Origin: Acidobacteriota bacterium
GTDB taxonomy: Bacteria > Acidobacteriota > UBA6911 > RPQK01 > JAJDTT01
Length of the DNA stretch: 64,000 nt
NCBI GenBank assembly: GCA_965217775.1
Contig: CBDCJH010000002.1
Span: 2,272,001-2,336,000 of the forward strand
Direction: 5' to 3'
Part shown: positions 13,052-17,943 of the stretch, piece by piece
Layout of the letters: each line of letters begins with the position of its first letter
How positions within the stretch are numbered: position 1 is the stretch's first letter
Made by a program: the position numbers and the translations under genes
Notes under the pieces: generated by a model
What the model was told of the DNA's origin: nothing
What the model saw: the letters and a program-made list of their open reading frames with translations, nothing else
The model's database searches: none

Positions 13052-14440
13052 ATGAGCATCGACCCAGAGGTCCACGCGCGAGTCTCCGCTGCCGCCGAGG
13101 GGCTATACGACGAGACCGTCCAGCTCATCCGGGAGCTGGTGCGGATTCCCAGCGAGAGCCCCAATTACGCCTACGCCAAGATCTACCAGGAGCGGGGCTA
13201 CACCAAGCTGTACGACGCTCCCGTGACCTTGGGCGGCGAGAAGAAGGTGGCCGAGCACCTGCATCCGATCTTTGCCCGGCTGGGCGCGGAGACCTTCATG
13301 GAGGCCAAGGAGCCGCTTCGGCCCAACCTCATCGGGATTCTCCCCGGTAGCGGCGGTGGGCGGTCCCTGGCGGTCAACGCCCACACCGACACCGTCCCCA
13401 CCGGCCCCCACGAGGAATGGCGCTGGGGAGATCCGTTCAGCGCGCGTCTCGCAGAGGGGAAGCTCTGGGGCCGCGGCTCCACCGATGACAAGGGTCCCCT
13501 GGCCTGCATGATCAAGGCCGTGGAGGTGATCCAGCGGGCCGGTTGTCGTCTCCGGGGCGAGCTGCAGCTCCACGCCACGGTGGGCGAGGAGACCATGGAC
13601 GGGAAGACGCACGGCCCCGGATATTTCCTTCCCCGGAACCCCCGTTGCGTCACCGACGCCTGCCTGGTGTGCGAGTCGTCGGCGCCGCCTCACCGCCATG
13701 GTATCTGCCTGGCTTCCGGCGGAGCCTCATGGCTGCACATCGAGGTCACCGGCAAACCGGTCCACGCCGCCATGGGTTACCGCACCTACCGCATGGGCTA
13801 CGAAGGGGGAGACGTGGGCATGGACGCCATCGGCAAGGCCCTGAAGATCTACCGGGGCCTGGCCGAGCTGGATGAGGAATGGGCCGCCAGCAAGCTCGAC
13901 CCGCGGGGTCTCACGCCCATGGGGTATCCGTCCATCATCACCGCGTGGATCCACGGCCACCCCAAGGGAATCGAGATCCCCTTCTTCGTGGCGGATCACT
14001 GCGAGTTGGGAGCGGCCGTCTGGCGGGACCCGCAGGACAGTTACGAACGGGTCCGGGAAGAGGTCGACGACCGGATTCAGGCCATCTGCCGGATGGACCC
14101 CTGGCTCCGGAAGCATCCTCCCGACGTGCAATGGCGTCTGGACTGGCCGCCGTTTCGGATCGAGCAGGACCACCCGCTGGTCACCGCCGCCGGCCGCGCC
14201 TACGAAACGGTGCTGGGGCAGGAACCGCGCTACATGACCTGGCAACCGGTGAGCGACGCCCGCTTCTACCAGGAATGCGGGGTGCCCTCAATGCTCATGG
14301 GGCCGGGAGACTACCGCCGGGCTCACTGCTACGACGAGTATCTGGAGCTGGATCAGATCGTGGAAGGACTCACGATCTACGCACTGACCATCCTGGAGTG
14401 GTGCGGATTCGACACGCAGAGTGCCGTACCAAGCTGTTGA
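13052..14440 (+). CDS. M20 family ArgE/DapE-type deacylase
   Basis: NAHTDTVP, GRGSTDDKG, VGEE, GKPVHA and AHCYDE metal-binding motifs. Confidence 0.9.
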   Translation: MSIDPEVHARVSAAAEGLYDETVQLIRELVRIPSESPNYAYAKIYQERGYTKLYDAPVTLGGEKKVAEHLHPIFARLGAETFMEAKEPLRPNLIGILPGSGGGRSLAVNAHTDTVPTGPHEEWRWGDPFSARLAEGKLWGRGSTDDKGPLACMIKAVEVIQRAGCRLRGELQLHATVGEETMDGKTHGPGYFLPRNPRCVTDACLVCESSAPPHRHGICLASGGASWLHIEVTGKPVHAAMGYRTYRMGYEGGDVGMDAIGKALKIYRGLAELDEEWAASKLDPRGLTPMGYPSIITAWIHGHPKGIEIPFFVADHCELGAAVWRDPQDSYERVREEVDDRIQAICRMDPWLRKHPPDVQWRLDWPPFRIEQDHPLVTAAGRAYETVLGQEPRYMTWQPVSDARFYQECGVPSMLMGPGDYRRAHCYDEYLELDQIVEGLTIYALTILEWCGFDTQSAVPSC

Positions 14441-14580
14441 CAGTCCTATGCCGCATTTCTCACCAGGTCGCTACGCGTATGATGAAAAATAATCTGTTTT
14501 TGAGCATTTACGCGGAATTTGCCAAGATTTCTCCGGGACAGACTGCGCGATCGTCACGCCCCCTTCTGAGAAACAACCCT

Positions 14581-15924
14581 TTATGCCCCCTGCGGAACCA
14601 GCTTGTAGCCGAGGAGACGGGCCTGGTTTCGCACCCGGCGTTCGAAACGTTGCCGGTCCTGGTGCTCGGTCTCGGTGAGCTTGTCCTCCTTATAGTCCAC
14701 GCGATCGGTGATGAGGCGATAGATGATCCGGGCGAGTTTATGCGCGGTGGCGACGATCGCCGCCGGCGTGCCCACTCGGGCGCGCAGCCGGCGGAAGTAT
14801 TGCCCGAGAGGCGATTGGCTGCGAAACAGGGACTGGGTGGCCCAGCGCAGAGCCTGGGCGGCCCGGTTCGCGCCCGGTCCGGTGCTGGAACTGATCACCT
14901 TGCCGCCGCTGATCTTGTTCTTGGGACACAGGCCCAGCCAGGAGGCGAAGTGCGCCGAATTGGGAAAGCGGGACAGATCCGGTCCCACTTCCGTGAACAG
15001 GACCAGGGCGGTCTGCTCCCCGATGCCGGGGATGCACATCAGGTCCGTGCCCATCAGTTGCTTCAGTTGCACCCGCAACGGCACCGCCGCAGCCGAGGCG
15101 TCCGCACCCTCTGAGGCCCTCGCTTCAAGCGGTAGCGTCGAGCGTTCGAACCCCCGGATCAGGACGGCGATTTCCTGATCACATTCCCCCAAGAGCTGCT
15201 GGAAGTGGGCATAGGTCTCCCGAGCTTGGCGTAGCGTGAACAGCAGTTCGTCGCGCCAGTTCCCTTCCAACGCTGCGATCAACAGTTCCCGTTTTCGGGT
15301 CCGAATCCGCGGGTGGGCCAAGTCGGCCAACCGGGCCGGATCCCGCTCGCCAGCCAGGATGGCGTCGATGATCCGCAGCCCCGAGAGTCCCGTGATGTCG
15401 GTGATCGCATGGTGCAGATGGACATTCATCTGGTCCATCGCCTTTTGCATGTGCAGCGTCGCCTTCGCGGCGGCCTTGACCAAGGTGTCGCGGTGCCGTA
15501 GCAGGGTGCGCACCCGACAGCTCTCGTCGGCCGGTCGGAACGAGCCCCGCAACCAGCCCACCGAGTGCAGGTACCGCAGCCACTCGCAGTCGGCCACGTC
15601 GGACTTGCGTCCGGGGACCACACTCACATGACGGGCGTTGACCAGCACCACATCGAACCCGTAGTGCTCCAGGATCTGGTACACCGGGATCCAGCAGACT
15701 CCCGTCGACTCCATGGCCACGCTTTTTACGTGGCACCCCTGCAGCCACCGCGCCAGGGCGTGCAGTTGGGAAGTAAAGCTGCGAAACGATCGGATCGGCT
15801 GCGGATCGCGGTCGGGGCGGACCGCGACGTACAGTTCCCGAGCGCCGATGTCGATGCCGGCGGCCTCCGGATGCACGACGTTGGGTTGGGCGCTCCGAGT
15901 GCCGGTGCGTTTGCGTCTTGCCAT
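14581..15924 (-). CDS. IS110 family transposase (DEDD recombinase)
   Basis: GIDIG, AMESTG and KSDVAD (DEDD); IPGIG, ASWLGLCP..ISGG (catalytic Ser) and VATAHKLARIIY; GGAGGG RBS before ATG 15924. Confidence 0.95.
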   Translation of the reverse strand: MARRKRTGTRSAQPNVVHPEAAGIDIGARELYVAVRPDRDPQPIRSFRSFTSQLHALARWLQGCHVKSVAMESTGVCWIPVYQILEHYGFDVVLVNARHVSVVPGRKSDVADCEWLRYLHSVGWLRGSFRPADESCRVRTLLRHRDTLVKAAAKATLHMQKAMDQMNVHLHHAITDITGLSGLRIIDAILAGERDPARLADLAHPRIRTRKRELLIAALEGNWRDELLFTLRQARETYAHFQQLLGECDQEIAVLIRGFERSTLPLEARASEGADASAAAVPLRVQLKQLMGTDLMCIPGIGEQTALVLFTEVGPDLSRFPNSAHFASWLGLCPKNKISGGKVISSSTGPGANRAAQALRWATQSLFRSQSPLGQYFRRLRARVGTPAAIVATAHKLARIIYRLITDRVDYKEDKLTETEHQDRQRFERRVRNQARLLGYKLVPQGA

Positions 15925-15964
15925 GATGATTCCCTCCACGTTGATTTGGGAAATGTGCCAATAT

Positions 15965-16145
15965 GGAGCGGGGCGGCCAGGGCGTGAGTTCCGGTAATCT
16001 TCTGTTTGGGATGATCCTCTCTGGCTTGCTGCCAGGGAGGATCTCACCATGGATTCCGCCACCCGCCCCGGGGCCAAGCTGATGACCGGGTTCGCCTTGA
16101 AAGGCTCAACGCCAGTGGGGGACCGGACTACTTCGCGCCCCACTC
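15965..16145 (-). ncRNA. Putative IS110 bridge RNA
   Basis: Non-coding leader with two stem-loops carrying internal loops. Loop segments match the target (TCATCAG, reverse complement of CTGATGA at 16223) and the element ends (CAGAAG; GCGGAATCCA). Boundaries are approximate. Confidence 0.7.
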
Positions 16146-16241
16146 CGAAACGACCCCAGTCTAGCGAAAGCGAACCCCCCTGTTTCTCTTAGGATTTCGC
16201 AGGCCGCAGGCCGGTGGGGGAGCTGATGAGAAATGCGGGCT

Positions 16242-17798
16242 ATGGCTGAAATCTCCGAGATCAACTACAAGCTGGGTCAGGACAACGTCCAGTTCCTCGG
16301 CCTCGACGTCCATCATCCGGTTTTCGTCGTCTCCAGCCTCACCATCATCGCCTTCGTCGCCGGGGTGCTGGCGTTCCAGGCCGAGGCGGCGGTCGCCTTC
16401 GAGGCGCTGCGCGCGTGGCTCACGTCGACCTTCGACTGGGTGTTGATGGGCACGGGCAACCTCTTCGTGCTCTTCTGCCTGCTATTGCTGGTGACCCCGC
16501 CTGGCCGTGTGCGCCTGGGCGGCGCGGATGCCCGGCCGGACTACTCCCGAACGGCCTGGTTCGCCATGCTGTTCGCCGCGGGGACGGGCATCGGCCTGAT
16601 GTTCTTCGGGGTGGCAGAACCGGTGGAGCATTTCCTGCAACCGCCGCTCGGTCTCGATGCGGCCGACACGGCGGCGGCGGCGCGCCTCGGCATGGCCAGC
16701 GCCATCTACCACTGGGGAATCCATGGCTGGGCCATGTACGCGGTGGTGGCGGTGGCGATCGCCTTCGCGTCGTATAACCTCGGCCTGCCGCTGGCGCTGC
16801 GGTCGGCGTTCTATCCGCTGATGGGGGAGGCTGTGTGGGGCCGGTTCGGCCACGGCCTCGACACCCTTTCCGTCTTCGCCACGCTCTTTGGGCTGGCCAC
16901 ATCGCTCGGCCTGGGCGCCGAGCAGTTGGCGGCGGGGCTGGCACGCCTGTGGGGCACGCCGGCGACCGACACCACCCAGGTGCTGCTGATCGTCGGTATC
17001 ACCGGCATGGCGCTGGCGTCGGTTATCAGCGGCATGGAGAAGGGGGTGAAGCGGCTGAGCGAGGCCAACCTGCTACTCGCCCTGCTGCTGCTGGTGTTCG
17101 TGCTGACGGTCGGGCCGACGCGCGCCATCGCCACCGGCGCCGTCACCAGCCTGGGCCAGTATCTCGCGTCGATCGGACCGCTCAGCAACTGGGTGGGCCG
17201 CGAGGATCTCGACTTCATGCACGGCTGGACGACCTTCTACTGGGCTTGGTGGCTCTCGTGGTCCCCCTTCGTCGGCCTGTTCATCGCCCGGGTCTCGCGT
17301 GGCCGGACGGTGCGCGAACTGGTCGCCTGCATGCTGGTCATCCCGACGCTGACTGCTACGATCTGGATGAATGCCTTCGGAGGGACCGCGGTGTCGCAGT
17401 ACGTCGACCGCGGCCATTCCGCCGTGATCACGGCGGTGCAGGCGCAGCAGCCGGAGATCGCCCTGTTCGCGCTGCTGGAGACGCTGCCACTTGCGACCGT
17501 CACCTCGTTCATCGGCCTCGTGTTGGTGGTGGTGTTCTTTGTCACCTCCTCCGACTCCGGATCACTGGTCATCGACACCATCACCGCCGGCGGCAAGCTG
17601 GATGCGCCGGTTGTCCAGCGCGTGTTCTGGTGCGTCTTCGAGGGGCTGATCGCCATCGCGCTGCTGCTCGGCGGCGGCCTTGTGGCCGCGCAGGCGGCCA
17701 CGCTCGCCGCCGCTCTCCCCTTCGCGCTGGTGCTGGTCGCCATGTGCTACAGCACCTGGAAGGGCCTGCGCGCGAGCACGGCGGGCAGGGTCCGTTAA
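16242..17798 (+). CDS. BCCT family (betaine/carnitine/choline) transporter
   Basis: WFAMLFAAGTGIGLMFFG, HWGIHGW, WTTFYWAWWLSWSPFVGLFIARVSRGRT and FFVTSSDSG. Confidence 0.95.
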   Translation: MAEISEINYKLGQDNVQFLGLDVHHPVFVVSSLTIIAFVAGVLAFQAEAAVAFEALRAWLTSTFDWVLMGTGNLFVLFCLLLLVTPPGRVRLGGADARPDYSRTAWFAMLFAAGTGIGLMFFGVAEPVEHFLQPPLGLDAADTAAAARLGMASAIYHWGIHGWAMYAVVAVAIAFASYNLGLPLALRSAFYPLMGEAVWGRFGHGLDTLSVFATLFGLATSLGLGAEQLAAGLARLWGTPATDTTQVLLIVGITGMALASVISGMEKGVKRLSEANLLLALLLLVFVLTVGPTRAIATGAVTSLGQYLASIGPLSNWVGREDLDFMHGWTTFYWAWWLSWSPFVGLFIARVSRGRTVRELVACMLVIPTLTATIWMNAFGGTAVSQYVDRGHSAVITAVQAQQPEIALFALLETLPLATVTSFIGLVLVVVFFVTSSDSGSLVIDTITAGGKLDAPVVQRVFWCVFEGLIAIALLLGGGLVAAQAATLAAALPFALVLVAMCYSTWKGLRASTAGRVR

Positions 17799-17818
17799 CC
17801 CGCCACGTGCATCCCTGT

Positions 17819-17943
17819 TCATGGGGCCGGGCGACTACCGGCGGGCGCACTGCTACGACGAGTACCTGGAACTGGATCAGATCGTGGAAGGACTCACGAT
17901 CTTCGCGCGGGCCATCCTGGATTGGTGCGGATTCGACGGATAG
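17819..17943 (+). pseudogene. Displaced duplicate 3' end of the M20 deacylase gene
   Basis: 17819-17937 aligns without gaps to 14295-14413 (about 10 mismatches in 119 nt) and encodes MGPGDYRRAHCYDEYLELDQIVEG...WCGFDG*. Confidence 0.85.

Follow-up and report, generated by a model that had tools for sequence, protein, structure and literature searches.

An IS110-family element in an Acidobacteriota genome whose leader probably encodes a two-loop RNA matching its target in an IS1380-derived MITE

The closest described relatives of the locus reported here are IS621, ISEc21 and members of the IS1111 group. As set out in the text of Durrant et al. 2024 (PMC11208160), IS621 combines a DEDD/Tnp transposase with an RNA encoded in a long left end, upstream of the gene; this RNA contains two internal loops, and in each of them the 5' arm reads one strand around a 2-nucleotide (nt) core and the 3' arm the other; the element uses a repeated genomic target. 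In the text of that report and of PMC13626964, the left target is the flank next to the left end, which encodes the RNA; a copy of the left target and core forms the 5' arm, the 3' arm is complementary to the core and right target, and handshake dinucleotides follow the 3' arms. The text of a 2026 preprint (10.64898/2026.10.21.760802) presents 86 bridge-RNA covariance models, many unlike that of IS621, with signed strand maps. Here, we describe an insertion sequence (IS) on the minus strand of a 64,000-nt stretch of an Acidobacteriota genome (contig CBDCJH010000002.1, positions 2,272,001 to 2,336,000; hereafter the window, whose own numbering is used below). From its sequence, the element is very likely an intact IS110-family RNA-guided recombinase element, with a 5' leader that encodes a two-loop bridge (seek) RNA programmed to a site in a MITE (a miniature transposable element with inverted repeats). 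It would thus be a known kind of system, and the mirrored layout of its clade is the only part that might be new.

The transposase gene (14581-15924, minus strand) is the only long open reading frame that fits, and it encodes 447 amino acids from an ATG preceded by GGAGGG. As originally predicted, the product is by its profile matches an IS110-family transposase: PF01548 was matched at 62 bits (7e-17), PF02371 at 59 bits (6e-16), and "IS110 family RNA-guided transposase" (NF033542) with 260 bits, the cut-off being 140. Both the RuvC-like DEDD domain and the Tnp (Transposase_20) domain of the family are recognizable at the profile level, and the SG of the Tnp domain aligns with that of the IS621 transposase 8wt6. 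The nearest solved structures are distant (8wt6, E 9e-10; ISCro4 transposase, E 4e-8), and the protein is longer than that of IS621 (328 amino acids in chain 8wt6_A). Its length falls in the size class that the text of PMC11187229 gives for the subgroup holding IS110 itself.

A search of the host genome (two contigs, 6.43 Mb) found three full copies of the element, each 1,658 to 1,659 bp long and 98.9 to 99.9% identical to one another. Alignment of the three with their flanks set the ends at fixed points of divergence, which places the window copy at 14565-16222 (minus strand, 1,658 bp). It is flanked on both sides by CT (14563-14564 at the right-end junction and 16223-16224 at the left-end junction, plus strand), the only bases common to the empty site and both junctions. 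The dinucleotide occurs once in empty MITE ends and the element lacks terminal inverted repeats, as in IS110-type insertion at a core. The CT core proposed earlier holds on the plus strand of the window and reads AG in the element's own sense, in which the left junction is TCATC-AG|CT. The right end (14565-14575, minus strand) terminates in ...TGTTTCTCAGA followed by core AG, and its CAGA plus AG is repeated in the donor loop described below. The left-end terminus, CTCCCCCACCGG (16211-16222, minus strand), is the right donor and is followed by a short GC hairpin. The non-coding sequence is divided unequally, with a leader of about 300 nt upstream of the gene and only 16 nt after the stop codon. 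The element appears intact and was probably active recently.

The window copy lies within a MITE at 14450-16239, bounded by CTAT (14446-14449 and 16240-16243), the probable 4-bp target duplication. The left part of the MITE (14450-14562, plus strand) begins with the terminal repeat GCCGCATTTCTCACCAGG and ends in ACGCCCC, the right target (GGGGCGT in the element's sense); beyond the element, the outer 15 nt of the right terminal repeat, GATGAGAAATGCGGG (16225-16239, plus strand), is the left target in the element's sense. A DNA contig of sequencing run X4 joins 14445 directly to 16240 and thus represents this site with neither MITE nor IS. The terminal repeats of the MITE family read CCCGCATTTCTCACCAGG; the host genome contains 120 repeat-end matches with at most three mismatches and 34 paired copies of 100 to 250 bp. 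These short, non-coding, multicopy sequences share their ends with a 5.2-kb element at 2805838-2811071 of contig C2 of the host genome (C2), which carries a split transposase matched by PF13701 at 179 and 280 bits and by NF033539, "IS1380 family," with 215 bits (cut-off, 180). Since the full-length partner with the same ends belongs to the IS1380 family, the label of IS1380-type MITE in the original prediction was right. IS1380 elements make target duplications of 4 to 5 bp; besides CTAT at the window copy, CTAG or CTAC flanked both sides of 4 of the 12 MITE copies printed for inspection, and the remainder were imperfect.

All three genome copies of the IS110-family element occupy the same position in the same orientation, at the inner edge of the right terminal repeat of the MITE. 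The empty target had been reconstructed as ACGCCCC-CT-GATGA on the plus strand. Among the 12 uninterrupted right ends printed, 6 read ...CCCCCTGGTGAGAAATGCGGG, which is both junctions joined through a single CT, and the reconstructed site is therefore real in the form ACGCCCC-CT-G(A/G)TGA; one more, truncated end at C2:3538013 has the variant CCCCCTGATG. Occupation of one position within one MITE family could also reflect shared descent, in which a single MITE already carrying the IS was copied by an IS1380 transposase; such a composite would keep both MITE terminal repeats, and the match between leader and flank would then say nothing about targeting. The IS bodies, however, are nearly identical, whereas their host MITEs are far more diverged: over 120 nt of adjoining MITE sequence, two copies are 87.5% identical to each other and about 40% identical to the window copy, the window MITE lacks an internal segment, and the left arm of the third host is strongly diverged. 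The three insertions were therefore separate events. The flank itself differs, being GATGA at the window copy and GGTGA at the other two, and relatives with other loop sequences have flanks that have changed to match. We thus regard shared descent as very improbable and favor repeated insertion guided by the leader.

The host genome has 75 uninterrupted repeat ends reading TTTCTCAYCAG, of which 16 continue with GGGG. All three occupied ends have GGGG beyond the element, and the 59 ends whose right half differs are all empty; by our own arithmetic, three insertions would all fall in this 19-of-78 class with a chance of about 1.4% if the right half were irrelevant. The string TCAYCAGGGGG is found at 28 genome sites, 16 in MITE ends and 12 outside MITEs, the latter likewise unoccupied. 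With three events, these empty non-MITE sites carry no information on any need for a MITE context. The description of the MITE end as a safe haven is interpretation only. Literature searches, which covered published text, found no description of an IS110 element in an IS1380 MITE.

The sequence that led to the original prediction, AGCTGATGA at 16077-16085 and 16221-16229, occurs at exactly these two sites in the window (shuffle mean, 0.48 per window). The second copy spans the left junction. The first lies in the leader, where the predicted RNA reads UCAUCAG, the 3' arm of the target loop, and then CU (16077-16085, minus strand): the arm repeats the five left-target nucleotides and core AG, and CU corresponds to the first 2 nt of the left end in a handshake-like place. 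The 5' arm of the same loop, UCCCCCA (16116-16122, minus strand; TGGGGGA on the plus strand), contains CCCCC, which can pair with the core G and the GGGG of the right target, a five-pair run present in all three copies of the host genome. In the earlier account, the sequences of these matches were correct, with left and right interchanged, since they had been named on the plus strand, opposite to the element. Under the IS621 convention, the copy of the left target and core is UCAUCAG, on the 3' side, and the arm that pairs with the right target is CCCCC, on the 5' side. The flank GATGA of the window copy is an exact guide match, and the other two copies, which read TCACC-AG in the element's sense, would be read by the same guide through G:U wobble.

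Relatives provide a comparative test. Homologous elements with 37 to 66% protein identity were collected from 5 loci in metagenome-assembled genomes, from 12 of 61 related genomes and from 17 of 401 genomes of a phylum sample, and further copies were added. Loop arms were cut by script from 33 copies by means of conserved neighbors. The closest relative (G005) was kept in all counts; two lineages with unclear left ends (G009 and G011) were included in guide-match counts and excluded from the right-donor and inverted-repeat tests. The target-loop 9-mer, comprising the 7-nt 3' arm and the next two bases, matched its own flank with 0, 1 and 2 mismatches in 9, 6 and 4 of the 19 lineages, respectively, so that at most one mismatch was seen in 15 of 19 lineages versus 14 of 340 comparisons across lineages. 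In all but a few copies, the match lies 113 to 138 nt upstream of the arm and is made up of 5 nt of left flank, the 2-nt core and the two bases with which the element opens. On the other side, the 5' arm was counted from the C of its CA end; in 12 of 32 copies it forms at least five pairs that begin at the second core base and extend into the right flank, and the corresponding figure across lineages is 14 of 954 comparisons. Many natural copies match the left half of the target only, and half-matched insertions are reported for IS621 in a 2026 preprint. In one lineage, G175, the core is AA, both 3' arms end in AA, and the 5' arm ends in UA, not CA.

The second loop shows the same behavior toward the element's own end. 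Its 3' arm, AAACAGAAG (15999-16007, minus strand), directly follows a conserved AUCCC (16008-16012), and its CAGAAG equals the right end plus core. An exact copy of the 7-mer sits just past the transposase gene in 17 of 19 lineages, and the other two have a copy with a single mismatch, whereas exact matches across lineages numbered 2 of 316. Where several copies of an element exist (the host genome, G048, G055, G028, G320, G173 and G280), the match point is the point at which flanks diverge, and the donor-loop 3' arm is therefore a copy of the right end and core. Covariation of guide columns with the flanks of other copies, proposed as a check in the original prediction, was thus found among the 19 lineages, and arms that match both target strands around a core and change with the target, a property of the IS110 family, are present here. 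A chance origin would treat the repeated 9-mer and the CCCCC run as accidents of G+C-rich DNA, and CCCCC is indeed low in information, with 12 of 100 window shuffles containing the 9-mer at least twice. But the second 9-mer copy lies exactly at the junction, and in 15 of 19 lineages the loop arm that holds the first covaries with it, which leaves chance hardly credible next to a guide function. The earlier proposal of a naturally programmed bridge recombinase aimed at a repeated target is supported; three of three copies lie at the same site, and such programming is very likely.

These arms occupy fixed places in a conserved leader structure. The bridge-RNA-like region extends from outer stem P1 to P1' (15965-16146, minus strand, 182 nt), as judged from a single-sequence fold and the consensus structure. 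RNAalifold on 13 leaders gave 33 pairs, 18 with compensatory changes. The fold test proper used 20 leaders from the 19 lineages, the closest relative included, and yielded a structure of six parts: the outer stem P1, the closing stem of loop 1, the inner helix UGG/CCG, the closing stem of the loop-2 domain, a UGGUGA/AUCCC helix and a distal stem. The near-invariant UGGUGA (16044-16049, minus strand) is predicted to pair with AUCCC as the inner helix of the donor loop. The loop with a 5' arm, the inner stem CUGG/CCGG and a 3' arm, recognized earlier in this one sequence, proved to be the target loop of the consensus fold, with covariation in the 20 leaders; a two-loop fold in homologous leaders, which had been named as a check, was accordingly found. 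In the consensus structure, 84.4% of cells are paired, against 33 to 51% when partners are slid by one to three columns, a control that favors the structure because the structure was partly derived from the same sequences. Double changes, which are independent of that circularity, occur in 26 of 37 pairs, and none of 500 shuffles reached the observed covariation score. By covariation, the long non-coding end with two internal loops that marks IS110-family elements thus appears to be present. Alone, the 182-nt core folds with z = -3.87 (0 of 200 shuffles as stable), and the whole 299-nt leader is not distinctive (z = -1.65).

One U:G pair is invariant (20 of 20 leaders) and a second nearly so (18 of 20). 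On the opposite strand these pairs would read A:C, which identifies the transposase strand as that of the RNA. This observation bears on a further alternative, in which the internal copies act as DNA, either as protein-bound subterminal repeats or through DNA-DNA pairing of the IS200/IS605 kind, and the fold is a translational leader. The lack of a mapped transcript and the existence of a DNA-level subterminal inverted repeat in the clade are compatible with such sites. Compensatory changes and invariant U:G pairs nonetheless point to selection on a single-stranded RNA from the transposase strand, the protein family is reported, in the text of PMC11208160 and PMC11187229, to have been shown experimentally to use such RNAs, and the arms lie in internal loops at fixed places, as in the RNAs of those reports. 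A DNA-only role is therefore improbable in our view, and an RNA guide remains the preferred explanation.

Comparison of arm geometry with the described systems reveals where the element departs from them. It resembles IS621, as the latter is described in the text of PMC11208160, in its DEDD/Tnp transposase, in the RNA region within a long left end upstream of the gene, in two internal loops whose 5' and 3' arms read opposite strands around a 2-nt core, in two extra loop bases after the 3' target arm at the place of the handshake dinucleotide, and in its repeated genomic target. The arm order, in contrast, is reversed: in every lineage examined, and in both loops, the 5' arm carries the top-strand match and the 3' arm the left-flank copy. 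The geometry is thus not that of IS621, with mirrored arms and a core that reads AG, not CT, in the sense of the RNA. Other differences from IS621 are the protein length noted above, a subterminal inverted repeat of 5 to 9 bp and a right-donor guide that was not found here. ISEc21, the upstream-RNA element of IS110 type tested by Siddiquee et al. 2024, has its bottom-strand match 5' according to the text of that paper (PMC11187229), an order opposite to the one seen here. As described in the same text, the seekRNAs of the IS1111 members ISEc11, ISPa11 and ISKpn4 share the order of this element, with the top-strand match 5' of the bottom-strand match, and these members have subterminal inverted repeats, but their non-coding region lies downstream of a transposase of 330 to 350 amino acids, not upstream of one of 447. 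The present element therefore has the IS1111 order of matches without the long downstream non-coding region or the short transposase of that group.

Read on the plus strand of the window, the site is ACGCCCC-CT-GATGA; the IS621 rule then holds for the arms, and CU falls in the handshake position. We infer that the chemistry is the same and that the difference from IS621 likely resides in which way round the gene module is set with respect to the crossover site. In the mechanism that would follow, the target in the element's sense is ...TTTCTCA(U/C)C-AG-GGGGCG... at the inner edge of the right terminal repeat. UCAUCAG plus CU, having the sequence of the left target, core and first two bases of the element, would pair with the bottom strand, and CCCCC of the 5' arm would pair with the second core base and four right-target bases of the top strand. 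CAGAAG in the 3' arm of the second loop, equal to the right end plus core, would recognize the donor (circle) junction. By analogy with IS621, ISEc21 and IS1111-type elements, the RNA would be made and bound by the transposase, the element would pass through a circle, and crossover would occur at the 2-nt core. The simplest form of this mechanism keeps that chemistry and would invert the gene module relative to the crossover site.

A second feature that recalls IS1111 is the subterminal inverted repeat. Its left-end half, GAGAAACA (16181-16188, minus strand), lies at left-end position 35 and is found at positions 32 to 40 in 17 of 17 lineages; the right-end half, TGTTTCTC (14568-14575, minus strand), is its reverse complement. 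Across the 17 lineages the repeat is 5 to 9 nt long, with a mean of 7.6 versus 5.5 across lineages, and its neighbors covary, for example AGAAACTGC with GCAGTTTCT and AAGGAAC with GTTCCTT. The likeness is to the IS1111 repeats of 7 to 17 bp, but placement here is asymmetric, about 5 to 14 nt from the right tip and 32 to 43 nt from the left tip. The repeat may act at either the DNA or the RNA level.

The clade that shares this layout is broad. A tblastn search of plasmids returned 362 records with a match, of which 275 cover at least 80% of the protein at 43 to 48% identity in many phyla, and all of these plasmid relatives are annotated just as "IS110 family transposase." A plasmid copy of Burkholderia vietnamiensis G4 matches exactly in both arms. 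For a plasmid copy from Nostoc, the downstream sequence gives an exact donor arm, and the target arm, missed by the script pattern, is exact by eye. A Caballeronia copy has two mismatches in each arm. Members of the clade were seen in Planctomycetota, Acidobacteriota, Burkholderiales and Nostoc. Because the mirrored layout belongs to a large clade, it has likely already been met by specialists. Searches of published text found no description of the combination of an upstream RNA with mirrored arms, which the figures and supplements of the Durrant, Siddiquee and 2026 preprint reports may show. We raise only tentatively the idea that long-transposase IS110 elements with an upstream RNA as in IS621, mirrored arms as in IS1111 and a covarying repeat form a clade that, if undescribed, is a missing intermediate between IS110 and IS1111 and would mean that the gene module was inverted with respect to the crossover site while the RNA stayed at its end; this seems to us doubtful.

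Several results weigh against the bridge-RNA explanation. Right-target pairing is just 5 bp, all of it G:C. Only three insertion events are available, and 16 matching MITE ends are empty. Furthermore, the donor loop is matched in its left-donor half (exact in 17 of 19 lineages) with no pairing signal in its right-donor half: in 17 rows, 3 of them with an imperfectly cut arm, the mean longest match between the donor-loop 5' arm and the element's left end was 4.1 nt within lineages versus 3.6 nt across. The string expected of a right end-core-left end circle junction had no match in the assembly, and no such joint was listed among the run contigs aligned to the region. Rfam 15, searched with permissive filters over 14000-17000, gave no match at E up to 1, and a sigma-70 promoter and terminator scan of 14400-16400, which does not cover the promoters of this phylum, gave no sites. 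Three metatranscriptome runs contain 5 to 9% of sampled words, and the two that were examined further have contigs of depth 2 to 5 over parts of the transposase gene and over 16021-16169; the sole RNA evidence for the leader is that one 152-nt low-depth contig, and strand and ends are not shown by such contigs, with carry-over of DNA possible. We therefore do not count them as expression. Finally, arm polarity differs from that of both experimentally studied upstream-RNA elements, so that the analogy includes one presumed step.

If the proposed programming is correct, this locus offers a clean natural case in which a bridge-RNA program can be read from a genome: a single set of guides, three filled sites among 19 that match, and dozens of empty ones that match by half. 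In the rules of the clade, the 3' arm carries a 7-nt guide for the left target and core and the 5' arm a short right guide, accompanied by a handshake-like dinucleotide and by a subterminal repeat that covaries. These rules would amount to a second scaffold that mirrors that of IS621, and would bear on the relationship between the IS110 and IS1111 layouts as well as on the design of bridge-RNA scaffolds. The locus also illustrates the use by one mobile element of another's terminal repeat as a landing pad. Site- and orientation-specific insertion into multicopy sequences is described for ISPpu9 and ISPpu10 (REP sequences) and ISEc21 (IS3-family transposase genes), and IS4321/IS5075, according to a title cited in PMC11208160, target the terminal repeats of Tn21-family transposons and hence, as here, another transposable element; unlike in all of these, the target here is an IS1380-derived MITE.

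Additional observations concern the relatives. The closest one, with 66% identity by genome search and 64% by tblastn, has flanks that match its arms partly (two mismatches; a run of 1). Its locus (L037) contains a partial second copy of a similar target-loop-like leader segment upstream, with an (AAG)n run after it, an arrangement that may be a nested or rearranged insertion. In several others (L044, L058, L061 to L073 of G028, L086 and L087 of G280, and L088 on the B. vietnamiensis plasmid), the left target resembles the element's own right end, over 12 to 19 nt, as with AAATCAAGTTTCATCTTAG beside AAATCAAGTTTCAGCTTAG, and some copies are arranged head to tail. Elements of the clade tend to insert next to sequences like their own right end.

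At the target, three IS-free MITE copies outside the window (C2:1848201, C2:6235496 and C2:4962249) have ...CCCCCTTCTGAGAAATGCGGG, in which the last bases of the element come after the terminal repeat (TTTCTCAGA-AG-GGGG in the element's sense). The 7-bp sequence TTTCTCA occurs as a direct repeat, once in the left target and once in the right end of the element, and a deletion between the two would produce this arrangement. The three copies are possibly scars of imprecise loss or possibly the product of common descent of those MITEs.

The left end also has counterparts elsewhere in the host genome (G000). At least 10 solo modules of about 50 nt resemble the first 50 nt of the element, reading AG|CTCCCCCACCGGCC, then a hairpin, then GAGAAACAGG (on C2, e.g., 4420759, 4306330, 1871098, 2159188, 3529000, 4027144, 4453340, 4798063, 4914607, 5372610 and 3164348). 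A purine-rich GAG(A/G)AAAG precedes them, and no transposase is nearby. Remnants, mini-elements and a host repeat are all conceivable. Apart from the element described here, the only IS110-family gene of the genome is a distant one at C2:322577-323497.

In the surroundings of the MITE family, the IS1380-family partner at C2:2805838-2811071 is interrupted by three adjacent tyrosine-recombinase genes, all with PF00589, an arrangement that looks like a recombinase-in-trio element. Within the window, a 122-nt direct repeat (14292-14413 and 17816-17937, 91% identity) represents the 3' end of an M20-type peptidase gene and brackets the MITE with its IS together with a gene for a BCCT transporter (16242-17798; PF02028, 564 bits). 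The block with the transporter appears to have been inserted or duplicated into the end of the peptidase gene. At 16240-16244, the probable CTAT duplication of the MITE overlaps the ATG of the transporter gene; the MITE and IS therefore abut the start codon and replace the native upstream region.

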